Positions 37,186-51,891 of a DNA stretch of 64,000 nucleotides are shown here, one piece after another (position 1 is the stretch's first letter; each line of letters begins with the position of its first letter). The notes under the pieces are model-generated. The model searched no databases. It worked only from the letters and a program-made list of their open reading frames with translations, and was not told the DNA's origin. The stretch lies in contig NZ_CP134616.1 in assembly GCF_051016195.1 (NCBI RefSeq), positions 956,110 through 1,020,109 on the forward strand. The letters run 5' to 3'. This stretch comes from Roseibium sp. (GTDB lineage: Bacteria; Pseudomonadota; Alphaproteobacteria; Rhizobiales; Stappiaceae). The position numbers were made by a program, and so were the translations under genes.

Positions 37186-39282
37186 TCATATACCTTCCTG
37201 AAGTCCGTGGGCTCGGCGAACGATTTTCATTGTTCGATCAATGTCAGCTTCGTTGCTCCACTTGATCACAATACCCCCGTTGTGTGTGGCATTCGTTATA
37301 AATGTGTAGACAGAAGTATCTTGGGCAAAGCCGTCGTCGTCATCAATTTCATTGAAGTCTAATGCAATGAGCAAACTAAGGCTGCGCCTCCTAGGGATCA
37401 CTTCCAGAAAGAAGCCGGGATCATGGTAAGTAACGGACTTGGTTTCGGGCATCTCAATCGCATCTGGAAATGCGGATCTCATCTCTGCGCGCAAAACCGT
37501 GAATAGCGCAGATGCCTGCTCCGTCATCGATACTTTTTCCAGCTTGCGCTTCGCCGCCCTTGCTTTCTTTTCGTGGAACTCTTGTTGGCGCACGAGCTTT
37601 GGATCCACATCAAGGGATGGCCAGATCTGAATGGCACGCCGCGCTAGTCGTCGGCCACGATTTGAAATCTCATTCTCGGTCCATTGCGTCGCATCGCGGA
37701 CGTCTTGATTCAATCTAACGGAACTCTGCACGAAACCGCCCCCTATGCGCTTTTTCTCCTCAAAAGGGCGATCGCTGTACGTGCTGTTATATCCGGTCAG
37801 AGTTAGATTTCCGATCCGATGTAGCCAGGTCTGCTTAATACCCACCCAATCTGCTCCAAGCATATTGCGCCACTCCTCGCGAAGGTTCTCGTTTTGCGGC
37901 AAAATGTGCTCAATACTGTACTTGCTCGTATCGCTATTCTCTCTGCTGTCCCGGTTTTCAAGCCCATCGAGCAAATGGAAACATACGCGTTTATGATACA
38001 TGTCGCTTTCTAGCAGAGATTTCTCAAACGTATCATCGTCGGGAAATGCGTAACTGGCGGAAGTACGGGCCAGTGCCACTTTTAATGATGCTAACGGATT
38101 CTGTTCTGCGATTTTGTACGCAATTCTGGCAAATTCCAGACCGTAGCCGCGCGTTTGCGCCCCAACAATAGCACGCCGCAGCAGATAGCTTTCGAGGAGG
38201 CGAAGTGCCTCAAGGAAATCAGAATAGCTGAGCGTTCTTAAATTCTCATAAGTCTCGTAGAGCCGCATAACCAGTATAGCAGGTATGTCTCCAAGCTGAC
38301 GCAAGTTGGCGAGGGCCCGTCCGAGTTCGTCGGGGCTACTGCGTACGGCGAACGCCGCGTAATATCTGGCTCGTTGAAGCAGGTCTTCGAGAAGCGCTTC
38401 CAAAGCATCAGGATCGTCACCGATGCGAAAATAGTAGTGCCGGAACGCTACATACACCCTGTCAGCTCTCTCCAGTTTTGACGGCTGTGTATTTAGCGCC
38501 AAAAAATCTCGAATGAAGTTGTCGAATATACGTTCGCTCCCTCGAAACAATGCTTCTATCTTGCACCAATACGTATTGTAGAGGCGCGTCTGGTCAGCCT
38601 CGGCAAGTCGCATGAGGATAAAGGTTCGGATCAGGTCCGAAGAACTCAGATCTACACCGGTTGAATTCAGGCTTTCGAAAATGAGCTGCGGGTCATCGAC
38701 ACCACGTTCAAGCGTCACATCAACGACTATTAGTCTGTTGAGGCCCCGATAAACGATTTCGGGATCTGCCTCTGACAAAAGCTCCCGGAATAGCTCATAG
38801 TTTTCCTGTATCTTTTGCGAAGCGTCGCGAGGCAGCTCTTCTCCATTGATCAATGCCTGCAGGGTTGCATCGTCATGACGTCGCAGTCTCAGCTTAATTT
38901 CTCGATCGCCTTCCTCTTGGACATTGCGGAGGAAATACGCCTCTATCCGCTTTATTTTCGGGCCGTCTTCCGTGCCTTGCCAAGCGGTTTCTCGAATGTG
39001 ATCACGAAGTGCAGTTAAAAGGAGCGTTATTGTTGTGACACGTTGTTGGCCATCGATAAGGAGCCAACGAGTAAAACCTGCCGCACTGTCACCTGTTGCC
39101 ACATGCACGACGGAACCAATGAAATGCCCGCGTCCATTGGCGCTTGCTCCAACCGCAAGTATGTCCTTCCAAATTTGACGGCAGTTTTCTTCAGACCAGC
39201 TGTAGTCGCGTTGAAATACCGGAATGATGAATTGCGAAGCGCCGTTAATGATCTTTGGGTGTGGACGGTCGATCGCTTTCAT
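37186..39282 (-). CDS. GmrSD-type (DUF262 + DUF1524/HNH) restriction endonuclease with an extra C-terminal domain
   Basis: IPVFQRDYSW, IDGQQRVTT, FESLNSTG (DUF262); SIEHILPQ...HRIGNLTL..YNS (HNH); visibly more AT-rich than the flanks. Confidence 0.9.
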   Translation of the reverse strand: MKAIDRPHPKIINGASQFIIPVFQRDYSWSEENCRQIWKDILAVGASANGRGHFIGSVVHVATGDSAAGFTRWLLIDGQQRVTTITLLLTALRDHIRETAWQGTEDGPKIKRIEAYFLRNVQEEGDREIKLRLRRHDDATLQALINGEELPRDASQKIQENYELFRELLSEADPEIVYRGLNRLIVVDVTLERGVDDPQLIFESLNSTGVDLSSSDLIRTFILMRLAEADQTRLYNTYWCKIEALFRGSERIFDNFIRDFLALNTQPSKLERADRVYVAFRHYYFRIGDDPDALEALLEDLLQRARYYAAFAVRSSPDELGRALANLRQLGDIPAILVMRLYETYENLRTLSYSDFLEALRLLESYLLRRAIVGAQTRGYGLEFARIAYKIAEQNPLASLKVALARTSASYAFPDDDTFEKSLLESDMYHKRVCFHLLDGLENRDSRENSDTSKYSIEHILPQNENLREEWRNMLGADWVGIKQTWLHRIGNLTLTGYNSTYSDRPFEEKKRIGGGFVQSSVRLNQDVRDATQWTENEISNRGRRLARRAIQIWPSLDVDPKLVRQQEFHEKKARAAKRKLEKVSMTEQASALFTVLRAEMRSAFPDAIEMPETKSVTYHDPGFFLEVIPRRRSLSLLIALDFNEIDDDDGFAQDTSVYTFITNATHNGGIVIKWSNEADIDRTMKIVRRAHGLQEGI

Positions 39283-39378
39283 CTTATATCCCAGAATCGG
39301 TGTGAATATTCAGTGATAAAATACTTCTGCTAAGAAGGGTAACATTTTTCAATTCAGGATTGTAGATATGTTGATTTA

Positions 39379-40222
39379 TTATTTTTTTTCTGATTGACAA
39401 CGTCTTTCCAACGCTTCGACTACCGATGGATCGGCTATCCACCCCTCGGCCGCGTCCACCGTCAGCGGAACCCCAAAGCCTTTGTCACGCCGTTGCCAAG
39501 CCCATGCAGCTTGCACGGCGCAGAGTAAGGCGTCGAGGTGATCAGCGCCTGGATCATCACATAAGTCCTTACTGGCCTCGATCGCAAAACCATAGCAATG
39601 AGGGCTCTGCATCTGGAGGGTTTCGAGAATTGCGAGACGAGCTTCAAAATGATCGCTGGTCTGTTTTTTCTTGGTATCGTTCTTATAGCTGCGGCACCCG
39701 ATTAAGGTTCGAGCGATTATGCCGGGATAGGCTTCCACCACGATCCTGTTCGGATCCCCTTTGTGAAGATGTGGGATCGTGACGCCGGCATCCAATAAGC
39801 GACCAGCGCCTTCAAAGAACATTAGACCCACAGGCACGCCATAGAGCTTCTGCGGGCTAATCGAGCCTGCGGCTACGTCAGTTGCTCTACGGTGCTCTTT
39901 ATCGCCTGTCTGACGGCCGGCGCGGTAGGCGTCCAGCGCGGCACGAAAGCCACTACGCTCAAGGCTTCTGGCATGATGGACATAATCCGCCCAAGCAGTG
40001 GGCAGCCAATCGTTTCGATGAAACGGCGGGATTGCCCAAACGGAAAGTCAATGCCAGCAATCCGTGGACCCGGTTGCGCGAGGGCGTTCTCGAAATCAGA
40101 AAAGTTCGCCCATTCTTCAAGTTTCTGCGTACGCAATATTCGGTCGTCGAAACAGCACGTTAATGCGGTGATCGGCTTGCGCTTGCTAGGGCGCCGGTGA
40201 AGTCTATGCCGATAATCTTCAC
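39379..40222 (-). pseudogene. DUF429-family (RNase H-like nuclease) gene with two apparent 1-nt deletions
   Basis: GTG start KIIGIDFT, shift near 40190 to PSKRKPIT...IAGIDFPFG, shift near 40003 to PTAWADYV...KLYGVPVGLMFFEGA...VVEAYPG...DHLDALLCAVQAAW. Confidence 0.75.
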
Positions 40223-40270
40223 GAATTGGACACTCCGGCCTTCATTGAGAACACGACGGTCCTCGGTTCG

Positions 40271-40626
40271 CTAGTTCCTCAGGTAGGTCACCTCGAATTG
40301 CTTGATTGGTCGCTGTTCCTGGAGCCGGTTTGCAAGGCTGAAAGCATCGTTCATCGAATAGGGCTGGAAAATATCGAGCCCACGGTCGAGTGAGATCTTC
40401 CAGCCTGTGTCGGTCACGATGTGCCGCGCGTGGGATATTCCGGTCCCATCGAAAGCCCAGGTAAACTCTACGCCAGATCCCTCGCACGCTGTCACGATTG
40501 CATCCAGATTGTCCCGCTGCTTGGTAACGTTACCGTCGTCTGGACAAATCACCAAGTGAACCTTCACCTCGTCCTCAGGCGTTTTGACGCGGACCATGTT
40601 TTGATCAATTCCATCATGTTCCGTAC
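40271..40626 (-). pseudogene. C-terminal (MIT_C-like) remnant of a BREX BrxL-like gene
   Basis: EDEVKVHLV, HARHIVTDTGWKISLDRGLDIFQ, FEVTYL; upstream VRNMMELIKT lies in another frame (shift near 40600); no N-terminal part or start codon. Confidence 0.7.
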
Positions 40627-40641
40627 CCGTCGCCAACCCCT

Positions 40642-41169
40642 TCACCGCAAAAACTGGTCGACGTAATCCTCGCCAAGACCAACGTCGGCGTAGTGCTGGC
40701 GGCACATGTCGATCTTGGTGAAGACGTCCTCGTAGCCGAGCGGTTTGCCGTAGGGGTCGACGTAATACATGATGCCGTTGACCTGAAAGAGGGTGATCAT
40801 CTCCTCGACATCGTCCGGCACGACGAGCGTGTGCGTCTCGCCCGGGGGCTCGTAGACATAGCCACCGGCCTCGGCGACCCAGTCATGTTCCAGGTAGTGC
40901 CAGCGCCCCTTGATGACATAGCCATGCACGGGGTTGGGGTGGCGGTGGCGCGACAGGACGCCGGACTTGCGTACCCGCAAGAGATTGACCCAGTAACCCT
41001 GGCTCCGGTTGAGGCAGAGCGGGCGGAACCAGACGTTTTCCGTCTGGGGCACCCAGACGCGCTCGTCTTCCGGGATCGCCGACGGCACCACGATCTCCGC
41101 CTGGGCGTCCTTCGGAAACGGCAGCTGATACGGGATCCGCGGGTTCTCGTCTATTGCGTCTAGGGGCAT
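40642..41169 (-). CDS. Cupin dioxygenase (2,4'-dihydroxyacetophenone dioxygenase family)
   Basis: WVPQTENVWFRPL, HRHPNPVHGYVIKGRWHYLEHDW, YEPPGETHTL. Confidence 0.85.
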   Translation of the reverse strand: MPLDAIDENPRIPYQLPFPKDAQAEIVVPSAIPEDERVWVPQTENVWFRPLCLNRSQGYWVNLLRVRKSGVLSRHRHPNPVHGYVIKGRWHYLEHDWVAEAGGYVYEPPGETHTLVVPDDVEEMITLFQVNGIMYYVDPYGKPLGYEDVFTKIDMCRQHYADVGLGEDYVDQFLR

Positions 41170-41199
41170 CTATGCTCCACTCCTCTTTCCCTGTTCCTG

Positions 41200-41901
41200 T
41201 CAGACGGCGGAATAGCCGCCATCCACCGGGTAGACCGCACCCGTTACGAATTGTGCCTTGCCGCTCAAAAGCCAGGCGACCAACGCACCCACTTCCTGCG
41301 GCTGCCCCCAGCGGCCCAGAGGCGTTCGGCCGAGGATCGTGCGTTCGCGGTCGGATTGCTCGCGCAGGCCGGCGGTCATTTCCGTTTCGATCCATCCGGG
41401 CGCAACCGCGTTGACCCTTATGCCGTCCGCCGCCCATTTCGCGGCGAGCGCCTTGGTCAGTTGCGCAACACCGCCCTTGGAGGCGGAATAGGCGGGCACG
41501 AGCGGGCCGCCGAAATAGCTGAGCATCGAGGCCGTATTGACAATGGCGCCGCCAGAGCGCTCCAGAAGCGGCCTGGCCGCCAGGCACATCCGCATCGTGC
41601 CCGTCAGGTTGACGTCGATCACCTTGCAGAAAGTCTCGATTTCGTACTCCGCCTCGCGCAGGAGGATCCCTGCACAATTGACAAGGCCATCAAGCCTGTC
41701 ATGGGTGGCGACGAGGTCCGCGATCCGGTCATCATCGGTGACATCGAGCGCGACGGCGGTCAGGTTCTCGCGCACCGGGCACGCGGCAACCTCGGCCTCG
41801 CTGACGCCGGTCGCGGTAACCGCCCAACCTTCTTCCAGAAGCGTCTCCACGACACCGAAGCCGATGCCGCGCGTTCCGCCTGTCACCAAGGCATGTTTCA
41901 T
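41200..41901 (-). CDS. SDR-family oxidoreductase
   Basis: TGGTRGIG, NCAG, YSASK, NAVAPGWIET. Confidence 0.92.
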   Translation of the reverse strand: MKHALVTGGTRGIGFGVVETLLEEGWAVTATGVSEAEVAACPVRENLTAVALDVTDDDRIADLVATHDRLDGLVNCAGILLREAEYEIETFCKVIDVNLTGTMRMCLAARPLLERSGGAIVNTASMLSYFGGPLVPAYSASKGGVAQLTKALAAKWAADGIRVNAVAPGWIETEMTAGLREQSDRERTILGRTPLGRWGQPQEVGALVAWLLSGKAQFVTGAVYPVDGGYSAV

Positions 41902-42821
41902 GCCGCCTGCCCTTCCCTCATGAACCGCAGCACATCCCGGCGTCTCGGCATGGGAGCAACCGCTCCATAGCCTTGCGTCGACAACGCGGCGGCCGCGTTT
42001 GCGTAGCTGGCCGCCTCGTAGGGATCGCGGCCGGCCGCCAATTCAGCAAGAAAGGCACCGTCGAACGTGTCGCCCGCCGCGGTCGCGTCGACCGCGGAAA
42101 CAGGTTGCCCCGGAACGCGCCTGCGTTCATCTCTCAGCGCGATCAGCGTGCCGTCCTTGCCAAGTGTGAGCGCCACGATCTCACAGCCCAGATCAAGATA
42201 AAAGTCCGCAATCGCGTCGGGGTCGGTAAAGCCCGTCAGCTGGATGGCATCTTCAAGCCCGGGTAGGGCAATATGCGCCTTGGCCATGGCAGCATGGGTC
42301 ACGGCCCGGGCGCGCTCCAGGGGCCAGAGATTGAGCCGGAGATTGGTATCGTAGGACACCCAGCCGCCGGCGTTCCGGCACAGATCCATCGCGGTGAAAA
42401 CCGCATCGGCTGCATCGGCGGAAATCGCCTGGCTTATGCCGGACACATGCAGGATACGGGCACCGGCAATATAGTCTTCGGGCAGGTCCGCAGGCGTCAT
42501 CAGGCTCGCAGCGGAGCCCTTGCGCCGATAGGTGAACGCATGGCCGTTGTCGTTGTGGCTGACAAAATAGATGCCGGTCGGCGCATCAGGATCCTGAACC
42601 ACCCTTGATGTGTCGACACCTTCCGACTGCCAAAGCTGCAGGAACTCATCGGCGAATGCATCCCGGCCGACCCGTGTCAGGTAACCGACGGACGCGCCCT
42701 GGCGCGCGGCGGCAATCGCGGCGTTGGACGTGTCTCCGCCATGTCCTTTCAGAAAACGTCCGTCCGCCTGTTCGTTGAATTCCAGCATCGGCTCGCCGAG
42801 ACAAATGATATCGGGTTGCAT
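41898..42821 (-). CDS. PfkB-family sugar kinase (KdgK-like)
   Basis: GEPMLE, GGDTSNAAIAAARQG, YDTNLRLNLW, VDATAAGDTFDG. Confidence 0.9.
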   Translation of the reverse strand: MQPDIICLGEPMLEFNEQADGRFLKGHGGDTSNAAIAAARQGASVGYLTRVGRDAFADEFLQLWQSEGVDTSRVVQDPDAPTGIYFVSHNDNGHAFTYRRKGSAASLMTPADLPEDYIAGARILHVSGISQAISADAADAVFTAMDLCRNAGGWVSYDTNLRLNLWPLERARAVTHAAMAKAHIALPGLEDAIQLTGFTDPDAIADFYLDLGCEIVALTLGKDGTLIALRDERRRVPGQPVSAVDATAAGDTFDGAFLAELAAGRDPYEAASYANAAAALSTQGYGAVAPMPRRRDVLRFMREGQAA

Positions 42822-42881
42822 TTTCCTTGCCTTTTTCGGTTTGGGCACCGGCCACGCCCGTCAAAGCGTGGCCGGGGCCGC

Positions 42882-44090
42882 TTACTGGGCTGTGTAGCTT
42901 TGTCCGACGCCGGGTATGCGCCAGATCCTGAAATTCGGGATCTCGGGATCTTCGAAATTCATCTCGCCATCCACCCAGACGTGCAGGTGGTTCGAGACGA
43001 CATAAAGCGATCCGTCAGGCCCCCAGGCGAGCGTATCCGGCCAGTTCATTTCCGGGTGATGAACGAAACGGCTTACCTGACCGGTCGATTCATCGAATTT
43101 CATCAGACCGTCGAGCGACAGGGCCGTCATGTAAATGTTGCCGGCGTTGTCCGCGGTCATGCCGTCCGTGTTCGAAGGAAGGGACGTTTCCACGCGCACC
43201 GCGTTTTCGATCACCGTCTCGTTTGTTTGAAAGTCACGCAGGATTTCCGTGGGCAGCGAATAGAGCTTGTTGCCCGTCAGATTGGTCCAGTAGACCGTCT
43301 TCTTGTCACCGGACAGCGCTATTCCATCGGCACCGGTCTGCATGCCGCCGTTCTTCAGAACGGGCCGGTCATCGATGTTGAAGAAGAAGTTGGGCTCGTT
43401 GTTGGTAAACTTGTGCTGATCGAGAATACGGCGCACCGTATTGGTCTTGCTGTCATAGACGATCAGCCCGCCGTGAAGCGGATCACAGAAGATACCGCTG
43501 TCGGCGATGTAAGCGACTCCCGTATCATTGTCCACGGCCAGGTCATTCAGGAAGGAGCACTGCCTGTCCGCCTCGTCAGCCGTGAAGACGTACCGCTGGA
43601 TCTCCTTGCCTGCGTTGATGTCCCACAGGACAAGCTTGGCGTCACCGTCTTCAAACGGAGGGCCGGCGACGTGACCCTGGTCCAGGATCCACATGACGTC
43701 ATTGCGATCAATCTCAAAGCCGAGAACAGCCTTGAGACCGGCCGCGTTGGCAATGTCGTTCATGTTCTCGTTCGGATAGGGCTCCAGCTCCCAGGTGTCG
43801 CCGTTCCTGACGAGTTTCGAGAGCGTTGCCGGTATCTCCTTTCCGGCCCACCGCGCCGTTGAAACGTAGATGTTGCCATTGCTGTCGACCTTGGCGCCCT
43901 GGACGAGCGCCTGACCGAAAATTGCGCTCTTTTCCCAGGCCGACCTGATGTCTTCTGATACGACCCTGTAGGGCAGGCTGTTCCATTCGGCGACGATTTC
44001 CGGCCGGGGCGTGTCCTTGGCGACCGCGCCACCGAGCCCTATAAAGACGGCCACGATCGCCGGCAGCGCTGCGAGTCTTGTCTGTGTCAT
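42882..44090 (-). CDS. Secreted yellow/major royal jelly (MRJP) family beta-propeller protein
   Basis: Signal peptide; MWILDQG, KLVLWDI, FLNDLAVD, YIADSG, ADGIALS, TDGM, WPDT. Confidence 0.8.
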   Translation of the reverse strand: MTQTRLAALPAIVAVFIGLGGAVAKDTPRPEIVAEWNSLPYRVVSEDIRSAWEKSAIFGQALVQGAKVDSNGNIYVSTARWAGKEIPATLSKLVRNGDTWELEPYPNENMNDIANAAGLKAVLGFEIDRNDVMWILDQGHVAGPPFEDGDAKLVLWDINAGKEIQRYVFTADEADRQCSFLNDLAVDNDTGVAYIADSGIFCDPLHGGLIVYDSKTNTVRRILDQHKFTNNEPNFFFNIDDRPVLKNGGMQTGADGIALSGDKKTVYWTNLTGNKLYSLPTEILRDFQTNETVIENAVRVETSLPSNTDGMTADNAGNIYMTALSLDGLMKFDESTGQVSRFVHHPEMNWPDTLAWGPDGSLYVVSNHLHVWVDGEMNFEDPEIPNFRIWRIPGVGQSYTAQ

Positions 44091-44115
44091 TTGAAGTGTC
44101 CCCCTTCTTTCAGCG

Positions 44116-44766
44116 TCAGATCCGGCCGTATTTCGCCAACCCCTCACGCAGGGATCCTGCCTGCATGATCAGCTTCGCCTGCTCGGCTTCGCGAATGTCG
44201 ATCTCACGCGCCATTTCAAGAATCTCCTCCGCCTGCGCGATCGGGACCACCACCACGCCGTCGATATCGCCGACAATGATGTCGCCCGGATGCACGATCA
44301 CGTCGCCGAGGGGGACCGAGACATTGGCAGCCAGCGTTTTGTGACGGCCAAGCGTCGTTCCGGGAGACGAAGACCGGGCGAAGATCTGGAAATCATAGTC
44401 CCGGCGGATCTCCGTGATGTCGCGCACGGCACCGTCGAGAACGGCGCCCTCGTGTCTGTTGGCGACGGCACCGGCGGTCATCAGACCGCCCCAGACCGCC
44501 ACGTTGGCGTCGCCTGCAATCGAGATCACGATAACGGATCCCGGTTCGCTTTCATCAATCGCATCCAGGGCATGCTGCGGCGGCACGAATTCATCTGTCG
44601 GGCCTTCAAGCACCGTGACCGCCGGACCGACGATCTTGACTTCGTTGATGCGCGGCTTGATGGCCTGATCGAGATAGCCCTTGCGGCCGGTGATCTTGTC
44701 CACCGCATCGGCAACCGAAGCCGTGGCGGTTTCGCGGAAGCCCGCGACCAGTTCCTTAAGTTCCAT
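44116..44766 (-). CDS. RraA-like / HMG-aldolase family protein
   Basis: ASVADA, VGPAVTV, AVWGGLMT, GAVLDGAVRD, PGDIIVGDIDGVVVVP. Confidence 0.9.
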   Translation of the reverse strand: MELKELVAGFRETATASVADAVDKITGRKGYLDQAIKPRINEVKIVGPAVTVLEGPTDEFVPPQHALDAIDESEPGSVIVISIAGDANVAVWGGLMTAGAVANRHEGAVLDGAVRDITEIRRDYDFQIFARSSSPGTTLGRHKTLAANVSVPLGDVIVHPGDIIVGDIDGVVVVPIAQAEEILEMAREIDIREAEQAKLIMQAGSLREGLAKYGRI

Positions 44767-44825
44767 TTCCGGTTCTCCTGATTGAAAACGTCCTTGAACG
44801 GCATTTGCGTGTTGTGTTTGCCGGC

Positions 44826-45818
44826 TCACCACCGGTTGACCCAATTGGCCGGCGGGCACCCTTCCAGGACGCGCACCAGCTCGGCGCCCGCGCGTCTTTG
44901 CAACTCGCCAACGGATGCTTCCGAATACCAGCCGCAATGGTCGCTCAGCACCGTGTTGGGCGCGTTGAGAATCGGATTTTCCCGGGCCGGCGGCTCGGTC
45001 TCGAACACATCGATCCCTGCGCCGAACAGTCTGCCTTCGTGCAATGCGTCCGCGAGGGCCGCCTCATCGACAAGGCCACCGCGCGAGGCGTTCAGAACAA
45101 TTGCGCTTTCTTTCATGAGCCCAATGCGGCGGGCGTCGATGACATTGTGCGTTGCCTCGGTCAGCGGGGTATGCAGGCTGACGACGTCGGCCTGGCGGCA
45201 CAAGCTGTCGAGATCAGTTGCCTCGACGTCCCAGGCAGCTCGTGCCTCCGCATCCAGATAAGGATCGCTCACCAGCACGCGGGAAAACCCCAGGGCGCGG
45301 AAGCGCGTGCAGGCGGCGCGCGCGATCCGCCCGAAGCCGATCAGGCCTATTGTCGCGTTGCGATGGCCGGGAACGGGGCTTTTTTGCCCGACGCTCCAAA
45401 GGCCCGCCCGCACTTCGGCATCCCGGGTCACGATCCGCCTTGCGACCGCGAGGTAAAGGGCAATGACATGGTCGCTGACTTCATTCTCCGCGCCATAGTC
45501 GGGAATGTTGGCAACGTGGATCCGGCGTTCCGTCGCGGTCTTGAGATCGACGTTGTCGACACCAACGCCATATCTCAGGATGAGCTTCAGGCCCGGAAAG
45601 TCGGAATAGAGCGCGGGGTCGATGCGGCGCTCTCGTGTGAGCACCGCAAAGACGTTCTTGTCGGCAAGGGCGGAGAGCGCATCCTGTCCGGCGGGAACCG
45701 GCAGGACACGCGCCCCAAAGGGCTGTATTGCCGCCTGCTCCAGCTCGTAGTCCGCGTAGCCCGGCTCAAGCACGGCGGCAAGCGGCGTCTCCGGTGTGGT
45801 TACAGTCTCCGCCTGCAT
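44826..45818 (-). CDS. D-isomer-specific 2-hydroxyacid dehydrogenase family protein
   Basis: RYGVGVDNVD, GLIGFGRIA, SLHTPL, NASRGGLVDE, DVFETEP, SDHCGWYS. Confidence 0.9.
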   Translation of the reverse strand: MQAETVTTPETPLAAVLEPGYADYELEQAAIQPFGARVLPVPAGQDALSALADKNVFAVLTRERRIDPALYSDFPGLKLILRYGVGVDNVDLKTATERRIHVANIPDYGAENEVSDHVIALYLAVARRIVTRDAEVRAGLWSVGQKSPVPGHRNATIGLIGFGRIARAACTRFRALGFSRVLVSDPYLDAEARAAWDVEATDLDSLCRQADVVSLHTPLTEATHNVIDARRIGLMKESAIVLNASRGGLVDEAALADALHEGRLFGAGIDVFETEPPARENPILNAPNTVLSDHCGWYSEASVGELQRRAGAELVRVLEGCPPANWVNRW

Positions 45819-45819
45819 G

Positions 45820-46833
45820 TCACTGGTTCCGGTACTTCTCAACCGCCGCGTCAAGCCTGTCAGGCCATTCCTCGCCGATTTCTCCAACGATGTATTCGCG
45901 CACGGCCGGCTGTGCCAGTTCACGGAACTTGGCTTTCTGTTCCGGGCTGACCGGGACCACCTCCAGGCCCTTTTCGCCGAGGATTGTCGCGGCATTGGCG
46001 TCCTGAGCCGCCGTCATGCCGCGATGGATGATCTTGGAGATCTCGACGCACTGGCCGACGGCCAGTTTTTCCGCGTCGGTGAGGCTCTCATAGAAATCGT
46101 CGTTGATCATGTAGGCGTGCCAGGAGAAGACGTGCCCGTCGAGGGAGACGTATTTCTGATGCTGATAGAGTGACGCGTTGACGATGTTGGTGACGCCGTT
46201 TTCCTGGCCGTCGACAACACCCTGCTGCAGCGCGCCGGGCAGTTCCGGCCAGGGCACAGGGGTCGCCGAAGCGCCCAGAGATTCCACCAGACGGGTCCAG
46301 ACCGGAGCGGTCATCACGCGCATCTTCAGGCCCTTCATGTCCTCAGGTTCGGCGACCGGAACCTTGGAGTTGGTGAAGTTGCGCACGCCATTGTCGGCAA
46401 GACCCAGGACGCGGATGCCTGTTTTTGTCCGCATATCCTCGAACATCTCCGCACCAAACTCGCCGTCAACCACGGACCAGGCCATGGCCTGATCATCGAA
46501 AAGATACGGCATGGCGAAGACGGCGAAGGGTTTGTAGACACCGGATATCGGCCCGTCATGCACAACGCCGAGCTGGATGGTGCCGAGCTGAAGGCCTTCG
46601 ATGACCTGCCCGCCGTCACCCAGCTGGGAGGCCGGATAGACCTGGACGTCGATGGAACCGGCCGTTTTGCCTTCCACGCAGGTTTCAAAGGCGAGCGCGG
46701 CCGCATGTTTGGGCGACGACATGTCAGCCGCCTGGAAATGTGCGTATTTCAGCTCTTTCGCGGAGGCCGCACCGGCCGCGGAAGCGATGGCCAAAGCGGC
46801 CGTTGCGCCCAGAAGTCGTGATGTCAGTTTCAT
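45820..46833 (-). CDS. dctP: TRAP substrate-binding protein (DctP family)
   Basis: Signal peptide; VYPASQLG, DNGVRNFT, DMKGLKMRV, ALQQGVVDGQEN. Confidence 0.93.
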   Translation of the reverse strand: MKLTSRLLGATAALAIASAAGAASAKELKYAHFQAADMSSPKHAAALAFETCVEGKTAGSIDVQVYPASQLGDGGQVIEGLQLGTIQLGVVHDGPISGVYKPFAVFAMPYLFDDQAMAWSVVDGEFGAEMFEDMRTKTGIRVLGLADNGVRNFTNSKVPVAEPEDMKGLKMRVMTAPVWTRLVESLGASATPVPWPELPGALQQGVVDGQENGVTNIVNASLYQHQKYVSLDGHVFSWHAYMINDDFYESLTDAEKLAVGQCVEISKIIHRGMTAAQDANAATILGEKGLEVVPVSPEQKAKFRELAQPAVREYIVGEIGEEWPDRLDAAVEKYRNQ

Positions 46834-46850
46834 GGTATTCCTCCCGTTTG

Positions 46851-48137
46851 CTAACTGGATAGTCCGAAGAAGCGAGGTAACGCGGTGCTGAGTGCCGGTA
46901 CGAGAATGACCAGCAGAAGAACCGCCATTTCCGCCGCGAGAAGCGGAAGAACGGCGCGGGACAGGCCTTCGATCCTGAGACGGCCAACCGTCGCGATGAC
47001 AAAGAGCACAGGGCCGACCGGCGGCGTGATCATGCCGATGGTGAGGTTGAGGACGAGCATCATGGCGAACTGCAGCGGATCGATGCCGAACTGTGCCGCG
47101 ATCGGGCCGAGCACCGGTGTCAGAATGATCAGGGCCGGAAGCGTGTCGATGAAAAGACCGCAGATTAGCGCGAAGCCGGCAAGCAGGAAGAGAACGGTCA
47201 ACCGGTCCGATGTCAGGCCCGCGATCGCGGCCGCCAGGCTCTGCGGGATTTGCAGGTAGGTCAGCAGCCAGCCGAACACGGATGCCATCGCGACGATCAA
47301 AAGAACCGATGATGTCGTAACGCTGGCCCTTACGAGAACGGTGTAGAGTTTCTGAAGGTTGAGCGAGCGCATCGCCAGGCCAAGAAGAAGCGCATAGGCC
47401 GTGGCGACCGCACCGGCCTCGGTCGGCGTGAAGATGCCTCCGAGAATACCGCCCAGGATGATCAGCGGCATGAGCAGAGCCGGTCCGGCAGCAAATGCGC
47501 TTCGGGCGACTTCCGGCACCGCGGCCCGGGTTTCACGCCCCCGGTAACCTTTCCTGACCGAAACGAGATGGTTTGCGGCGGCAAGGGCCAGTCCGAGCAT
47601 CAGTCCGGGAACGATCCCGGCCAGAAACAATCCGGCCACCGTCACGCGGTTGTCGGAAATCGCGAAAATGACCATGAGGATGGACGGCGGAATAATCGGA
47701 CCGATCGTTGCCGTCGCCGCCGACAGGGCTCCGGCATAGTTGGCCTCGTAGCCGGCCTTGCGCATCATGCGCATGACGATGGCCGATGGCCCGGCTGCGT
47801 CCGCGAGCGCTGATCCGGAGATGCCCGCAAACAGCATGGACACCAGAACGTTCACATGTCCCAAACCGCCCCGGATATGCCCGACCAGGTCATTGGCAAA
47901 GCGCAAGAGGGCCGCCGTCAGTCCGCACGCCGTCATCAGCTCCGACGCCAGGATGAAAAAAGGAACGGCCATCAGCGGGAAGGAGTTGATCCCGCCGAAC
48001 ATGCGCTGCGGGATCAATAACGGGTTCAGACCGCCGTCGATGAGGATAGCTGCGGTCGAGGCAACGCCCATCGTGAACACGACCGGCAGGCCCAGAGCCA
48101 AGGTCAGGAAAAACAGGATGATCAGGGTCTTGGCCAT
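46851..48137 (-). CDS. dctM: TRAP large permease
   Basis: AVPFFILA, FAGISGSALADAA, IGPIIPPS, TPTEAG, GMITPPVG. Confidence 0.94.
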   Translation of the reverse strand: MAKTLIILFFLTLALGLPVVFTMGVASTAAILIDGGLNPLLIPQRMFGGINSFPLMAVPFFILASELMTACGLTAALLRFANDLVGHIRGGLGHVNVLVSMLFAGISGSALADAAGPSAIVMRMMRKAGYEANYAGALSAATATIGPIIPPSILMVIFAISDNRVTVAGLFLAGIVPGLMLGLALAAANHLVSVRKGYRGRETRAAVPEVARSAFAAGPALLMPLIILGGILGGIFTPTEAGAVATAYALLLGLAMRSLNLQKLYTVLVRASVTTSSVLLIVAMASVFGWLLTYLQIPQSLAAAIAGLTSDRLTVLFLLAGFALICGLFIDTLPALIILTPVLGPIAAQFGIDPLQFAMMLVLNLTIGMITPPVGPVLFVIATVGRLRIEGLSRAVLPLLAAEMAVLLLVILVPALSTALPRFFGLSS

Positions 48138-48643
48138 CAGGAGGGGTCCTCCTGATCGTCAAGGGCTGCCTCTGCCTCGAACTCTCCTGCAACAAAGCGC
48201 CGGCACACGAATGCGAGGTGGCAGAGAAACAGGAAACAGCCGAAAGGTATGGCCATATAGGGGATGCCGCGCGAAATGCCGGTCGCCATGGTCTCCTTGT
48301 TCCAGCCGAACTCCACGAACAGGATGCCGAACCAGAAGATCAGTCCCATGAAGACTGCCATCACCAGGACCGCACCCCAGCGGATCGCGGTCTTGAGACC
48401 GCGCGGCAGGAGAGAAACAAAAAGATCGATCTCGACAAGACGGCCGCTTCTGAGCGCAAGGCCCGCGCCGGCGAAGACACCAAAGATCATCAGGAAACGG
48501 GCGACTTCCTCACCCCAGGCGAGCGAGCTGCCGAACAGATAACGGCCGGCGACATTCGTGATCACGATGAGGAAAACCGCAGCGAGCGCTGCCACGACCA
48601 GAGCGCGGTTGACTGCAATCAGGATGCGCTCGAACCGCGCCAT
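48137..48643 (-). CDS. dctQ: TRAP small permease
   Basis: Four TM segments; WGEEVARFLMI. Confidence 0.9.
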   Translation of the reverse strand: MARFERILIAVNRALVVAALAAVFLIVITNVAGRYLFGSSLAWGEEVARFLMIFGVFAGAGLALRSGRLVEIDLFVSLLPRGLKTAIRWGAVLVMAVFMGLIFWFGILFVEFGWNKETMATGISRGIPYMAIPFGCFLFLCHLAFVCRRFVAGEFEAEAALDDQEDPS

Positions 48644-48707
48644 CTGTCCCCTCCCTCAGATCCGGGATCGCGGCCAATCGCCCGATCGATCCCCCTTGTT
48701 TTCACAA

Positions 48708-48733
48708 CTGGCATACTGGCATACAGTATGTCA
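48708..48733. promoter_or_regulatory. GntR-type operator in a divergent promoter
   Basis: TGGCATAC-A-GTATGTCA palindrome (48717-48733) overlapping a tandem CTGGCATA repeat. Confidence 0.6.
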
Positions 48734-48805
48734 ACAACAAAAATACTGTACACAAAACGCCGGTGCGCGCTATAAGCCCGTTGAACCGGAAGGAATCGAA
48801 GACGC

Positions 48806-49450
48806 ATGCTGAAGATCGAGCGACCCAAATCATTTGCGGAACAGGTTTCCGATGTCCTGCGTGCGCAGATCATCAGCGGCGAGCGCGACATGGGGGAAGC
48901 GCTGTCGGAGACCAAGATTGCCAAGGAGCTCGGCGTCAGCCGGACACCGGTCCGGGAAGCGTTTGCGCGTCTTGAACTGGAGGGGCTGGTTCATACCGAA
49001 CCGCAGCGCGGCACGTTCGTTTTCACGCTCGACCGGTGCGCCCTTGTCGACATTTGCGACGTCCGCGTCTGCCTGGAAACCGCAGCCTTGCGCAAGGCCA
49101 TGGAACGCGATCCGGACGGACTGGTAAAGAGCCTGGCCGACATCACCAAAAAGATGACGAAGGCCCGCAAGAAAGCAGACGACCGGCAGTATCTCAGTCT
49201 CGACACGGAGTTTCACCAGAAGCTGTTCGACCACGCGCAGAACATGTTCCTGAACGACGCGTTCCAGACGATCGCGGCGAAAATGGCCTGTCTCAGGAAC
49301 AAGCTGGGCAATCACCCGGACCACATGGAAAAATCCTACGGTGAACACATCCGGATCTGCGAGCTGCTGGCCGCAGGAAAGACGGAAGAAGCCAGTGACG
49401 TCATGATCAGCCACATCGGCCGCAAGGAAGGCTCCTACTGGAACAATTGA
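48806..49450 (+). CDS. GntR-family (FCD) transcriptional regulator
   Basis: LSETKIAKELGVSRTPVREAF; DTEFHQ; EHIRI. Confidence 0.9.
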   Translation: MLKIERPKSFAEQVSDVLRAQIISGERDMGEALSETKIAKELGVSRTPVREAFARLELEGLVHTEPQRGTFVFTLDRCALVDICDVRVCLETAALRKAMERDPDGLVKSLADITKKMTKARKKADDRQYLSLDTEFHQKLFDHAQNMFLNDAFQTIAAKMACLRNKLGNHPDHMEKSYGEHIRICELLAAGKTEEASDVMISHIGRKEGSYWNN

Positions 49451-50253: not shown

Positions 50254-51636
50254 TCAAAGTGTCGCCGGAAATGCATTTGCCGATTGAGCGTAAGCGGTAT
50301 CAGCCAACAGTTGTTTTCTGCGCGCAAGCGTTTCCTGCCAGTCTTGCGCCTCCCGATCCTTGAAGAACGACGCGTCAGGTGCAAGACGTCGAACGGCGTC
50401 CTCGACTTCATTGAGGCTCACACGAAAGAACTCTTTTCGCAAATTCGACATATTGATGCGCTTGTCTCCGAATTCGCGATGCAGCGCTAACTCCAAAGCT
50501 GGTGCTTCCTCGGAATAGATCATTGCATGGGTGTCAAAAGAAAATGGCACACTGGCGTCTCCAAGCTCCCGCACGCGATCATTTGGGTCCAGCCGTCTCG
50601 TTAGTCCGATCTTGACGACGTCCTCTCCGAATGACCCCACGTTAGAAACAATGTAGACGTATCCCGACTTTGTCAGTTCTGCCATCGCTCGGGCGCGTTC
50701 ACCGGTCGCATGTGCCTCCGCGAGAGATGTCTCCAACTCCGCGATCTTGTTTCGAAGCCGCTCATTGTCGACGTCGACCTCGGCCTCCTTACGCGCCTTC
50801 GCGAGCAAATCTTGATATTTCTGCTCTTCCTTGTCTGCCTTTTCCGCTTCAGCGAGAAGCTTTTTCTCTTCACGCTCGGCCCGGGCCAATTCCACCCGCT
50901 CATCTCGCTCCTGTTTGAGTTGTTCACGGTACTCATGCGTCAAGCGAAGTTCTTCGATTTTCAGCGCAACATAGGCGTCGTTGATCACGAGGTTCATCGA
51001 AGAGTTCGAGGCATCGATTGCAATAACCGCCTTAAGGACCCGGTTCTCCATCGCGATGACATTGTTCCATCGAGTATTTGCTATTGCTGCCTCACATTCG
51101 TTGTTGAACGCCCGCATAGTCAGGCGCATCTGACGATTGATCATGGTCTTTCCCTTCGACAGACTTCCATCAACGGTCCAATTGGTTGGACAAATGCAGG
51201 CATGTTTAGAAGAGACCATTGCTTTCTGCCGTCTCCGAACAGTTTTGATGCGTTCCTTAAAAGCTTCGCTGTCATTGAAATCAAAATGCGGCTCATACAT
51301 GCCGAGTTCGGCGAATGACAACCGCTCGTCGTACACAGCTAATTCGTGCTGCAATCGATCAAACGTAACCTTCTTCTCGGCATACGAAGTACGCAGCTCC
51401 TCAATCCTGCTTTGTTCTACGACAGTCTCTGACCTTAATCGTTCGAGTTCGGCTTCCTCAGAAATCAGGCCACCGTACTTATCTTCTAGCTTGACCGCCC
51501 GCTCCTCTAACCCGTCGATGATTGCGATCGATTGCTTTCTGGAGTAGCGCAAAATGATCCATGTCCAGATCCAAGCAACGAGCAGAACTGGTGCAGCGGG
51601 AAGCCAAATGAAAAGGAAAATGACACCGGGTTCCAT
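50254..51636 (-). CDS. DUF4041 / T5orf172 (GIY-YIG-like) domain protein with an N-terminal TM helix and coiled coil
   Basis: GAGGA RBS; RAFNNEC, SGYVYIVSNVGSFGEDVVKIGLTRRL.P.DRV.ELGDASVPF.FD.HA, RKEFF. Confidence 0.88.
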   Translation of the reverse strand: MEPGVIFLFIWLPAAPVLLVAWIWTWIILRYSRKQSIAIIDGLEERAVKLEDKYGGLISEEAELERLRSETVVEQSRIEELRTSYAEKKVTFDRLQHELAVYDERLSFAELGMYEPHFDFNDSEAFKERIKTVRRRQKAMVSSKHACICPTNWTVDGSLSKGKTMINRQMRLTMRAFNNECEAAIANTRWNNVIAMENRVLKAVIAIDASNSSMNLVINDAYVALKIEELRLTHEYREQLKQERDERVELARAEREEKKLLAEAEKADKEEQKYQDLLAKARKEAEVDVDNERLRNKIAELETSLAEAHATGERARAMAELTKSGYVYIVSNVGSFGEDVVKIGLTRRLDPNDRVRELGDASVPFSFDTHAMIYSEEAPALELALHREFGDKRINMSNLRKEFFRVSLNEVEDAVRRLAPDASFFKDREAQDWQETLARRKQLLADTAYAQSANAFPATL

Positions 51637-51891
51637 GAATTCCTCAACTAACTTGACAGCAAACAACAACCCGATCAACCTAAGGTAATAGCATTCATGT
51701 CTGCAATCAAGCCTGAGAAGCAGCCTGCGTGCCGAATATTATGTCCGCGCCATCAGTATGATGTCCGCTAACTGCAGACTTACCAACTAGGTATCAGCAA
51801 TAGTTGACCCCGTACCATGCATTCACTGAAAAAAATCAACAAAACGCGAGCGAGAGACTTTGCTTCGGTTCCCATTACTAGAGAGGCAGAA

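Follow-up and report, generated by a model that had tools for sequence, protein, structure and literature searches.

Operons of the De Ley-Doudoroff and semi-phosphorylative Entner-Doudoroff type, such as dgoRKADT of E. coli and the L-galactonate/L-gluconate systems (PMC12632266), are among the closest described relatives of the locus analyzed here. Shared elements are a repressor of the GntR/FCD type, a transporter for the acid, an upstream lactonase, a kinase for 2-keto-3-deoxy-hexonate and an aldolase of the Eda family (in cis in many loci orthologous to ours), together with additional oxidoreductases and an epimerase serving acids of the L series. The Roseibium operon differs in that the dehydratase is replaced by an RraA-fold enzyme, a CtBP-like 2-hydroxyacid dehydrogenase (2HADH) and a DAD-like cupin, and in that the lactonase slot is filled by a secreted MRJP-fold protein.

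We analyzed a window of 64,000 nucleotides of a Roseibium sp. genome. The original prediction described nine packed minus-strand genes divergent from a GntR gene, and this layout was confirmed: the ORFs of a ten-gene unit, with a plus-strand GntR/FCD gene, were verified at the coordinates below and their Pfam matches all exceed the family cut-offs.

48806..49450, plus strand: GntR/FadR-type regulator, HTH + FCD (Pfam GntR 68.7 bits, FCD 81.5 bits)
48137..48643, minus strand: dctQ, TRAP small membrane subunit (Pfam DctQ 106.8 bits)
46851..48137, minus strand: dctM, TRAP large permease (Pfam DctM 357 bits; TIGR00786 399 bits)
45820..46833, minus strand: dctP, periplasmic solute-binding protein with N-terminal signal sequence (Pfam DctP 254 bits)
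44826..45818, minus strand: CtBP/PGDH-like D-2-hydroxyacid dehydrogenase, 2HADH (Pfam 2-Hacid_dh_C 171 bits)
44116..44766, minus strand: RraA-fold (HMG/CHA-aldolase-like) predicted Mg-dependent lyase (Pfam RraA-like 124.8 bits)
42882..44090 (ORF to 44147), minus strand: secreted MRJP/yellow-fold six-bladed propeller (PF03022 MRJP 97.5 bits; SGL 51.3 bits)
41898..42848, minus strand: PfkB-family sugar-acid kinase, predicted (Pfam PfkB 184.8 bits)
41200..41901, minus strand: KduD / gluconate-5-dehydrogenase-like SDR (adh_short_C2 200 bits)
40642..41169, minus strand: Cupin_7 protein, 2,4'-dihydroxyacetophenone dioxygenase (DAD) family (Cupin_7 74.3 bits)

The intergenic gaps of the nine-gene run range from -4 to 59 nt, and from this spacing alone we infer that the genes are co-transcribed. 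Terminator-like sites within the operon show no excess (8 vs 8.0 expected in shuffled sequence). The visible operator that had been proposed also held up: the palindrome TGGCATACAGTATGTCA at 48717-48733 lies on the promoter, overlapping the -35 hexamer TTGACA (minus strand, 48734-48729), with an additional direct half-site at 48709-48716 and ATACTGTA at 48743-48750. The position of its consensus (TGGCATAC-N-GTATGCCA) is kept in ~30 orthologous alphaproteobacterial loci, and the operator occurs at a single site of the 6.5-Mb genome when up to two mismatches are allowed. The GntR/FCD gene, kept beside the operon in nearly all loci, is predicted to encode its local repressor.

More than 20 genomes, spread over several families, show all ten genes in identical order, which is far beyond chance, and the operon is best explained as horizontally mobile. 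The bacteria that carry it are alga- and plant-associated. Module frequencies were determined on 29 fully flanked loci seeded with RraA; other counts refer to 79 metagenome loci or to 33 genome loci, the latter seeded with MRJP. Among the RraA-seeded loci, PfkB was present in 25 (adjoining RraA), TRAP in 22, 2HADH in 19, SDR and cupin in 13 (always as a pair, 13/13), Eda in six and MRJP in two. The invariant core is composed of the transporter, RraA and PfkB, and the 2HADH, the SDR-cupin pair, Eda and MRJP are optional add-ons. Minimal forms include TRAP-RraA-PfkB (Variovorax) and Eda-RraA-PfkB. Among the metagenome loci, 22 of the 79 have Eda adjoining RraA, and so do 11 genome loci; Eda lies within the operon in Ruegeria and many further loci, and the Roseibium genome carries three Eda genes outside the operon. 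A variant from sediment presents the arrangement TRAP-RraA-2HADH-DUF362-ferredoxin-aldehyde:ferredoxin oxidoreductase, with neither kinase nor Eda, a composition suggestive of aldehyde release by RraA. In the vicinity of some cores, GMC oxidoreductases of the gluconate-2-dehydrogenase type are recurrent, as is an Ldh_2 enzyme, and in one variant an Ldh_2 gene (YiaK family) replaces that of the 2HADH.

RraA is the pathway-defining core enzyme and PfkB its core partner. Across alpha-, beta- and gammaproteobacteria, the RraA proteins share 65-99% identity, and the mean column identity of the orthologue alignment is 82%. RraA shares its fold and a conserved Arg-Asp catalytic/metal pair with HMG/CHA aldolase (LigK/GalC/ProA) and with FlDet, and its R115-D116 align with R123-D124 of 3NOJ. 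FlDet, an RraA-family Mg-dependent sugar-acid dehydratase/decarboxylase of a marine Flavobacterium, shows that, in marine bacteria, keto-deoxy sugar acids can be substrates of Mg-dependent lyase reactions carried out by this fold (PMC8563752). The Roseibium protein nevertheless belongs to a separate, very highly conserved orthogroup (~25-30% identity to 3NOJ by eye) in which the second-shell Asp of 3NOJ is an invariant Gly, and its constant partner is a kinase, and neither a semialdehyde dehydrogenase nor a pathway for aromatics. The label of aldolase that it had been given probably does not apply to the terminal step, because a genuine Eda aldolase often adjoins it.

The PfkB protein is closest to KDG/KDGal kinases (nearest structures 1wye and 2var) and is predicted to be a sugar-acid kinase, scoring 189.8 bits against NF040938, below the cut-off of 400. 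The 2HADH lies below every NCBIfam equivalog cut-off and is nearest to structures 1wwk, 5tx7, 2cuk and CtBPs. The best family match of the SDR is KduD (TIGR01832; 184 bits, below the 339 cut-off). The cupin matches DAD 4p9g (E 1.9e-44 across 159 residues); RHxHP and GExHTL are both conserved, and the HxH...H metal site is retained. A set of cupin, SDR, KDG kinase and Eda is also characteristic of the 5-keto-4-deoxyuronate pathway (KduI/KduD/KdgK/KdgA); however, our cupin belongs to the DAD family (Cupin_7) rather than to KduI, the SDR falls below the KduD cut-off, and the RraA-PfkB core also occurs without the pair.

The same genome harbors a paralogous operon, conserved in eight more genomes, which contains an SGL lactonase, a sugar ABC transporter, an SDR, a 2HADH, RraA, DgoK, an Eda-family aldolase, an SDR and a Cupin_7 protein. 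A canonical SGL, cytoplasmic and devoid of signal peptide, occupies the slot of MRJP, and DgoK, a KDGal kinase of a non-homologous family, that of PfkB. The pairing of 2HADH and RraA is invariant in this operon, and five of eight such operons stop after RraA, neither kinase nor aldolase being encoded in cis. No dehydratase of a known family (enolase superfamily, IlvD/Edd, UxuA, UxaA) was found in the main operon type or in the paralogous one. This missing dehydratase, overlooked in the original prediction, is the most interesting gap.

The gene for the MRJP protein most likely starts at the ATG at 44090 and not at the 5' limit of the ORF (44147). Every full-length orthologue carries a signal peptide (MTQTRLAALPAIVAVFIGLGGAVA|KD in Roseibium), so that the protein is predicted to be exported to the periplasm. 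It shares its Pfam family and fold with the insect yellow/MRJP proteins (MRJP1, the dopachrome conversion enzyme DCE, sand-fly LJM11) and with Anabaena Ava_4197 (2qe8), all secreted, of which 324-348 residues superpose on it at 2.5-2.9 A. In comparisons of its AF2 model (pLDDT 90), VIA Z reached 42 with MRJP1 and 23-27 with lactonases, the nearest enzyme class by fold after the yellow family. Sequence and fold therefore place it in the MRJP/yellow family and not among the SGL lactonases (SMP-30/gluconolactonase/LRE: Drp35, XC5397, xylonolactonase XylC, periplasmic PpgL), although it shares their six-bladed propeller and a partial PF08450 match, its N-terminal half showing no match to the SGL profile. 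Four residues are invariant (E126/N182/D255/D309): N182, D255 and D309 align with the calcium ligands D138, N185 and D236 of Drp35, and MRJP adds the invariant E126, the fourth metal ligand being assigned by motif only. In contrast to this bacterial subfamily, MRJP1 and DCE lack the tetrad at the first three positions where aligned (D309 is not comparable in MRJP1); the bacterial proteins are embedded in a sugar-acid operon, with no melanin or amine-binding context. We conclude that MRJP is most likely a metal-dependent sugar-lactone lactonase, predicted to act outside the cytoplasm. Precedents exist for lactonases that work in the periplasm ahead of acid uptake. The higher Z to yellow proteins that are not lactonases (42 vs 27) counts against this reading.

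The proposal of a periplasmic lactonase is supported by the signal peptides, the metal-ligand positions and the SGL of the paralogous slot, but MRJP is not a core component. It was detected in one of eight sampled homologous operons of Rhizobiales and in 11 of the 79 metagenome loci, and its gene occupies six different positions across operons. Its absence from homologous operons, named beforehand as grounds for refutation, therefore applies to most of them. The reverse link holds: operon genes adjoin MRJP in 32 of 33 MRJP-seeded loci, as they do for a 62%-identical orthologue from another class. MRJP, missing from most operons yet almost never found outside them, is a dependent accessory.

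These observations lead us to a model that we consider about evenly balanced between right and wrong: a GntR/FCD-repressed mobile operon that scavenges a sugar acid of the hexonate type, together with its lactone, our guess for the acid being an L- or D-hexonate (e.g., galactonate, gulonate or gluconate). In the periplasm, secreted MRJP would hydrolyze the sugar lactone or a cyclic ester closely akin to it, yielding the carboxylate required by the TRAP binding protein for uptake through DctPQM. The RraA-fold Mg enzyme, with the 2HADH where present, would convert the acid to a 2-keto-3-deoxy-hexonate, taking the place of the sugar-acid dehydratase of Entner-Doudoroff and De Ley-Doudoroff schemes. 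The KduD-like SDR and the DAD-like cupin may form a paired front end channeling keto- or uronate-type congeners to the same intermediate. In the presumed order, PfkB would then phosphorylate this intermediate and an Eda-family aldolase, acting in trans in Roseibium, would release pyruvate and glyceraldehyde-3-phosphate. The L-galactonate/L-gluconate route has the same number and kinds of steps ahead of its KDG kinase and aldolase (PMC12632266). No description of the pathway proposed here was found in the literature searched. Several points count against it: the known RraA-fold members (HMG/CHA aldolase, oxaloacetate decarboxylase, FlDet) all act, to our knowledge, on 2-oxo acids, and we know of none that dehydrates a 2-hydroxy acid; dehydration by RraA alone would leave the frequently paired 2HADH without a role; the sediment variant lacks kinase and Eda; the paralogous operon stops at RraA in five of eight cases; most homologous operons lack MRJP; and plain gluconate use via 6-phosphogluconate would be redundant with the canonical Edd-Eda of the Roseibium genome.

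Some of these difficulties disappear in a route through 2-keto-aldonates, which we regard as unlikely overall. The imported acid would be a 2-keto-hexonate (e.g., 2-ketogluconate), or be made so by the 2HADH; a KguK-like PfkB would phosphorylate C6, RraA would act as a class II aldolase cutting C3-C4 into hydroxypyruvate and glyceraldehyde-3-phosphate, and the same 2HADH would reduce hydroxypyruvate to D-glycerate. No dehydratase would be needed, and MRJP would hydrolyze the aldonolactone ahead of an oxidation in the periplasm. The 2-ketogluconate kinases belong to the PfkB family, and this route would account for the tight 2HADH-RraA pairing, the anaerobic sediment variant that has no kinase and the operons ending at RraA; the GMC oxidoreductases and Ldh_2 near some cores are also in its favor. 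C3-C4 cleavage of a 2-oxo acid matches RraA-fold chemistry (3NOJ alignment; PMC8563752). However, the frequent Eda beside RraA-PfkB and the pair of KDGal-specific DgoK and Eda in the paralogous operon are left unexplained. Moreover, we know of no hydroxypyruvate-forming activity documented for the RraA fold. The algae- and plant-associated hosts would suit the scavenging of 4-deoxy-5-keto-uronates (DEH/DKI) released by the alginate, pectin or ulvan lyases of other organisms, a reading that we find rather improbable. The SDR, assisted by the cupin as a KdgF/KduI analogue, would reduce DEH to KDG for PfkB and Eda, and the SDR would also oxidize DEH to 2-keto-3-deoxyglucarate, from which RraA, in the manner of FlDet, would form alpha-ketoglutarate semialdehyde. 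Both KduI and KdgF belong to the cupins, KduD is the best family match of the SDR, and the aldehyde:ferredoxin oxidoreductase could oxidize the semialdehyde. FlDet and a bifunctional SDR perform exactly such steps in marine Flavobacterium (PMC8563752). Yet more than half of the cores lack SDR and cupin, neither an alpha-ketoglutarate-semialdehyde dehydrogenase nor a polysaccharide lyase recurs in any neighborhood, the paralogous operon starts with a neutral sugar and a lactonase rather than a uronate, and the tight RraA-PfkB adjacency suggests consecutive steps instead of two branches.

The use of dehydroascorbate or 2,3-diketo-L-gulonate, by analogy with yiaK-S of E. coli, appears very unlikely. 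MRJP would open dehydroascorbate, TRAP would take up 2,3-diketogulonate, the 2HADH would reduce this to 3-keto-L-gulonate, and PfkB would phosphorylate this beta-keto acid for decarboxylation by RraA to L-xylulose-5-phosphate. The analogy to YiaK, YiaMNO, LyxK and SgbH holds step by step, RraA-fold enzymes decarboxylate oxaloacetate, and the replacement of the 2HADH by a YiaK-family enzyme in one variant fits as well. Dehydroascorbate hydrolyzes spontaneously, so a lactonase would be dispensable, in line with the patchy presence of MRJP. Nonetheless, no locus contains pentulose-phosphate epimerases, the Eda and DgoK associations are unexplained, and the kinase is similar to KDG kinases rather than to the FGGY type. 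The original prediction of a novel pathway for a sugar acid, or for an acid derived from an aryl ketone or glycoside, stands in its first part as an uncharacterised sugar-acid operon; the second part is unsupported, since the KDG-type kinase is constant, Eda is frequent and no aromatic-pathway genes occur in any neighborhood. We therefore see hardly any chance for an aromatic acid pathway in which the DAD-like cupin would cleave an alpha-hydroxy aryl ketone, RraA would be an HMG/CHA-type aldolase and MRJP a dopachrome-tautomerase-like enzyme acting on a quinone. The cupin is indeed close to authentic DAD, RraA shares the fold of the meta-cleavage aldolase, and DCE is the nearest characterised enzyme to MRJP by fold. 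But the sugar kinase is invariant and the cupin optional, ring-cleavage, hydratase and CoA genes are absent from more than 120 neighborhoods, RraA scores far under the LigK equivalog cut-off (92.7 vs 304.5 bits), and DCE and MRJP1 differ at the invariant acidic positions of the MRJP subfamily.

If MRJP is a lactonase, as in our preferred model, this would provide a first testable job for bacterial members of the MRJP/yellow family. For the neighboring genes, the nearest solved structure to DctP is 4p47 (E 5e-56), too distant for its ligand to be read, and the start candidates of PfkB are GTG 42848 and ATG 42821.

The original prediction described nine close-packed minus-strand genes opposite a GntR regulator with a visible operator, and both parts of this description were borne out. 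Every Pfam assignment scored above its curated cut-off. In window coordinates, the features are:

48806-49450, divergent from the operon: GntR+FCD regulator (Pfam above curated cut-off)
48717-48733, intergenic: operator palindrome TGGCATACAGTATGTCA, overlapping the TTGACA -35 hexamer
48137-48643, minus strand: DctQ (Pfam DctQ, 107 bits)
46851-48137, minus strand: DctM (Pfam DctM, 357 bits)
45820-46833, minus strand: DctP (Pfam DctP, 254 bits)
44826-45818, minus strand: D-2-hydroxyacid dehydrogenase, 2HADH (Pfam above curated cut-off)
44116-44766, minus strand: RraA-like protein, 216 residues (Pfam above curated cut-off)
42882-44090, minus strand: MRJP (PF03022, 97.5 bits, and a partial SGL match)
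41898-42848, minus strand: PfkB kinase (Pfam above curated cut-off)
41200-41901, minus strand: SDR (Pfam above curated cut-off)
40642-41169, minus strand: Cupin_7 (Pfam above curated cut-off)

The P, Q and M components of the TRAP transporter are all present and their genes adjoin or overlap, as expected of a DctPQM system. Neighbouring genes of the operon overlap by up to 4 nt or lie at most 59 nt apart, and this tight packing fits a predicted single transcript for the nine genes. The count of terminator-like hairpins inside the operon (8) equals the number expected from shuffling (8.0), and the scan for promoters and terminators was uninformative, doing no better than on shuffled sequence. 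The regulator has the N-terminal winged HTH and C-terminal FCD domain of the GntR/FadR subfamily, with a palindrome at its target promoter. The consensus TGGCATAC-N-GTATGCCA was recovered at the equivalent position in about 30 orthologous alphaproteobacterial loci, and the beta- and gammaproteobacterial versions of the operon carry another palindrome, of GATATC type. A scan of the whole 6.5-Mb genome yielded no second copy of the operator. The regulator is therefore dedicated to this operon, and regulon membership accordingly gives no hint of the substrate. Nor could the ligand of DctP be deduced from solved structures, of which the best relative is too distant.

Low-GC DNA (0.47-0.51) of defence type brackets the operon at window positions 37186-40705 and 50254-52848. 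The cupin-side flank contains an intact GmrSD together with a remnant of MIT_C/PLD-like type, the reading frame of which extends over the stop of the cupin gene, and the opposite flank contains T5orf172/DUF4041 and LprI-like genes. Two close relatives (loci L001 and L002) have the operon and a Usp gene in common with the window, not the MIT_C remnant.

We analyzed the conservation of the operon from two seedings, one with MRJP and one with RraA, the latter removing the ascertainment bias of MRJP. The MRJP-seeded set comprised 33 genome loci, a count that, like all locus counts here, is descriptive, since related genomes and contigs are included and are not independent. These loci came from Roseibium (97%), Ruegeria, Shimia, Tropicibacter, Stappia, Hoeflea, Devosia, Endobugula and others. 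Operon genes adjoined MRJP in 32 of them, mostly all ten and in unchanged order; the only lone MRJP gene, without catabolic context, was found in a gammaproteobacterial MAG (L023). An RraA orthologue was detected in 9 of 401 Rhizobiales genomes and in none of the five other genomes of the host's genus. MRJP was missing from seven of the eight foreign Rhizobiales operons, which kept all remaining genes. The RraA-seeded metagenome set comprised 79 loci, with both flanks present in 29. These 29 loci frequently contained PfkB (25), TRAP (22) and the dehydrogenase (19), followed by SDR and cupin (13, never apart), Eda (6) and MRJP (2). Across all 79 loci, MRJP was present in 11 and Eda in 22.

The extremes of gene composition are seen on annotated plasmids and chromosomes (a slash sets off the GntR gene):

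Variovorax: GntR / TRAP-RraA-kinase
Polaromonas: TRAP-2HADH-RraA-kinase
E. coli (32 of 5426 complete genomes): MFS-2HADH-RraA-kinase-GntR
Pantoea: MRJP divergent from MFS-2HADH-RraA-kinase
Caballeronia: GntR / MRJP-RraA-kinase-MFS
Rhizobium etli: GntR / MRJP-dctQMP-...
Acidovorax, and a 62%-identical orthologue in another class: RraA-kinase-MRJP-SDR-cupin

These variants define an invariant core composed of a transporter, RraA and the kinase (plus GntR). MRJP is a dependent accessory of this core: it is hardly ever found without the operon, the operon usually occurs without it, and its gene was found at six different operon positions. The original prediction that MRJP belongs to the operon thus holds when viewed from MRJP, nearly always operon-linked, but not from the operon, since most homologous operons do not possess it. 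In E. coli FDAARGOS_144 (NZ_CP014111.1, 3360587-3365494) the genes form a five-gene island between ppiC and ilvC, with neither MRJP nor Eda in cis.

In Ruegeria and several Rhizobiales, a KDPG/KHG (Eda) aldolase gene is inserted between the dehydrogenase and RraA, and Eda-RraA-PfkB trios are recurrent among the metagenome loci. Clustering of flanking ORFs over more than 120 loci recovered only transporters, regulators, transposases and an occasional GMC oxidoreductase, Ldh_2 or MGS-like gene, and none of these recurrent neighbours fixes the substrate. The gene with an MGS (methylglyoxal-synthase-like) domain directly follows the cupin in seven Ruegeria/Shimia loci (L004:13230-13724 and the equivalent position in L005-L007, L015, L017 and L032) and is not found in the window. 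Another variant combines a NitT/TauT-type ABC transporter, with an NMT1-like binding protein, and the Eda-RraA-PfkB core (L107:191-9594; also L100, L102, L104 and L108); its neighbours are a GMC oxidoreductase, an SDR and, in L107, a YiaK-family Ldh_2. Finally, a low-GC sediment locus (L113:5948-10308; Ga0315296_10004841) presents TRAP-RraA-2HADH and, next in order, DUF362, a 4Fe-4S ferredoxin and an aldehyde:ferredoxin oxidoreductase; it has neither kinase nor Eda. In contigs related to this locus, RraA is paired with a radical-SAM gene.

The window MRJP matches PF03022 over residues 142-410 of its 421-residue ORF, above the cut-off of 19.8 bits. Its match to PF08450, the SGL (SMP-30/gluconolactonase/LRE) lactonase family, is partial (profile positions 134-245 of 246; 51.3 bits against a cut-off of 26.3), and the full-length profile was not matched. 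Alignment with the SGL paralogue of the same genome using hhalign recovered the blade register only and was uninformative. We built an AlphaFold model from 32 orthologues (pLDDT 90), whose closest structures by VIA Z were MRJP1 (42.1), the mosquito dopachrome conversion enzyme (DCE; 41.8) and Anabaena Ava_4197 (2qe8; 40.2). The score dropped clearly to the next enzymes, all SGL-type lactonases: 2p4o (27.2), RPA3624 (27.1), Drp35 (25.4), SMP30 (24.0) and xylonolactonase (23.5). Foldseek gave a TM of about 0.73 against solved MRJP/yellow members. As modelled, the protein is therefore a true yellow/MRJP six-bladed propeller. The calcium ligands D138/N185/D236 of Drp35 align, in weak HMMER domains, with N182/D255/D309 of MRJP, and E126, N182, D255 and D309 are invariant across the 32 orthologues. 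These four residues are candidates for the central divalent-metal site (Glu, Asn/Asp, Asn/Asp, Asp) of SGL lactonases. MRJP1 and DCE differ at the first three positions of this tetrad (E126, N182 and D255), whereas Ava_4197 retains three of the four.

A Sec-type signal peptide was predicted in every full-length MRJP orthologue (in the window, MTQTRLAALPAIVAVFIGLGGAVA followed by KD). TRAP binding proteins of the DctP family require a carboxylate ligand; ring opening of a lactone would therefore have to precede uptake and take place in the periplasm. Lactones also hydrolyse slowly unaided, and the patchy presence of MRJP thus fits an enzyme that is helpful yet dispensable. On balance, these features tip slightly toward MRJP acting as a periplasmic lactonase; alternatively, it may be another hydrolase or a tautomerase, or have a binding role.

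None of the soluble enzymes of the window operon reached an equivalog cut-off. The nearest structures to PfkB are the Sulfolobus KDG/KDGal (2-keto-3-deoxygluconate/-galactonate) kinases 1wye and 2var, and its best families scored below cut-off (NF040938, 189.8 bits against 400; NF052444, 148.3 against 400). This supports a protein that probably works like a KdgK/KDG-KDGal kinase, rather than a member of that family. Likewise, the SDR falls short of KduD, its best family (TIGR01832, 184.3 bits against 338.85), followed by glucose-1-dehydrogenase and gluconate-5-dehydrogenase, both below cut-off. The 2HADH is CtBP/PGDH-like. Homology of the cupin to 2,4'-dihydroxyacetophenone dioxygenase is clear (E 1.9e-44 to 4p9g), with the 3-His site and the RHxHP and GExHTL motifs retained. 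Dioxygenolytic cleavage of an alpha-hydroxy ketone would be the activity of this family; the genomic context of the cupin is one of sugar acids, not aromatics.

RraA orthologues are unusually conserved (65-99% identity). R115-D116 align with the catalytic Arg-Asp ('vRD') of the HMG/CHA aldolase structure 3NOJ and are invariant in 17 orthologues, whereas the second-shell Asp of 3NOJ is replaced by an invariant Gly. Several assignments were rejected: the LigK/PcmE HMG/CHA aldolase equivalog on score (TIGR02798, 92.7 against 304.5; NF006731, 102.9 against 179), and the RNase E regulator on score (NF006875, 49.1 against 136), length (216 against about 160 residues) and catabolic context. A KDPG aldolase was set aside because Eda is so frequently adjacent, and an Edd substitute for plain gluconate because the genome has a canonical Edd-Eda pair. 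This pair and three Eda genes lie outside the window operon.

The Roseibium genome contains seven RraA-like genes, one of them in a paralogous operon outside the window (G000:C1:356790-367942; L158 6791-17942). Opposite a GntR/FCD gene, this operon encodes an SGL lactonase, a sugar-binding protein, an ABC ATPase, a permease and an SDR, followed by a 2HADH, an RraA-like protein, DgoK, an Eda-family aldolase, an SDR and a Cupin_7. Its 2HADH and RraA-like proteins are respectively 34% and 36% identical to those of the window. Its enzyme set is that of the window operon with three informative substitutions: a neutral-sugar ABC importer replaces the acid TRAP, a canonical signal-less SGL lactonase occupies the place of MRJP, and the kinase is DgoK, of a family non-homologous to PfkB and, to our knowledge, known only for 2-keto-3-deoxygalactonate. 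In this operon sugar oxidation would be intracellular and the lactonase would work in the cytoplasm. Eight further genomes of the order kept SGL, ABC, 2HADH and RraA; DgoK, Eda, SDR and cupin are optional, and five of the paralogous operons stop at RraA, with only unrelated housekeeping genes downstream. Because in both modules the RraA-2HADH pair accompanies unrelated keto-deoxy-hexonate kinases, Eda-type aldolases and upstream lactonases, we would place both in the class of oxidative sugar/sugar-acid pathways, either De Ley-Doudoroff or semi-phosphorylative Entner-Doudoroff.

In the best-supported scheme, MRJP would open a lactone in the periplasm, DctPQM would import the acid, RraA would perform a dehydratase-equivalent step yielding a 2-keto-3-deoxy-hexonate, PfkB would phosphorylate it and Eda would split the phosphate ester into pyruvate and glyceraldehyde-3-phosphate. 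The aldolase is available in trans, from the three genome copies, and in cis in Ruegeria-type loci, many metagenome loci and the paralogous operon. The SDR-cupin pair and 2HADH might serve as front ends for keto/uronate congeners, or for L-series acids needing inversion; in a described L-galactonate/L-gluconate route, KDG kinase and aldolase act after dehydrogenase, epimerase, reductase and dehydratase steps (PMC12632266). The window operon would thus work like dgo/ED-type sugar-acid operons but departs from them on the dehydratase: neither the window operon nor its paralogue encodes a sugar-acid dehydratase of a known family, and none turned up among the neighbours that recur over more than 120 loci. 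The role given to RraA comes by elimination, as RraA is the sole enzyme besides the kinase in the minimal operons. The data agree with an RraA that produces the keto-deoxy acid instead of cleaving it, and FlDet, of the RraA family, dehydrates and decarboxylates a keto-deoxy sugar acid in a Mg-dependent manner (PMC8563752).

This putative dehydratase-equivalent step is also the least secure of the scheme, because 2-oxo acids are the substrates of the RraA-fold members known to us, because it does not account for the tight pairing of 2HADH with RraA, and because of the kinase- and Eda-less sediment variant, with its aldehyde:ferredoxin oxidoreductase, and the five paralogous operons ending in RraA. 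The same observations favour the main rival, according to which the kinase acts on a 2-keto-hexonate formed by 2HADH, and RraA splits the phosphorylated product into hydroxypyruvate, which 2HADH then reduces, and triose phosphate. Such cleavage, however, leaves Eda and DgoK unexplained. Three further readings rank lower: FlDet-like scavenging of 4-deoxy-5-keto-uronates (DEH/DKI), dehydroascorbate use in the manner of yiaK-S, and the aromatic pathway of the original prediction. The last of these gained no support. The earlier interpretation is thus supported in part: the gene observations stand, and MRJP, although an accessory, is probably a periplasmic lactonase. The RraA step matters more than the role of MRJP.

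If the scheme holds, the RraA fold probably has an enzyme activity not described before, since the core has no known dehydratase. The stronger statement, that RraA (with or without the CtBP-like dehydrogenase) is a fifth, unrecognised solution to sugar-acid dehydration and that operon-linked MRJPs are new secreted metal-dependent sugar lactonases, which would be a first biochemical role for yellow proteins of bacteria, is tentative and rather doubtful as a whole. We know of no function assigned to MRJP/yellow proteins from bacteria, and our full-text literature search found no description of this module or of a function for any bacterial MRJP. If the scheme is correct, one bacterial MRJP subfamily would be linked with a particular operon, a cellular compartment and a likely reaction, and genome annotations reading 'RraA family protein' or 'C-terminal binding protein' would be uninformative. 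The core is widespread, being hosted by marine Roseobacter-group bacteria, Stappiaceae, rhizobia, Burkholderiales, Pantoea and E. coli and present in anaerobic sediments. Orphan TRAP-linked operons would then decide the range of dissolved sugar acids open to heterotrophs of marine and plant-associated habitats, and knowing the substrate would close a gap in the prediction of carbon sources.

The Roseibium genome also possesses a second MRJP-family gene, at a locus without catabolic context (G000:C1:4051717-4052808; L074 9718-10809). It encodes a protein of 363 aa, 30% identical to the window MRJP, and lies beside a LysR regulator.
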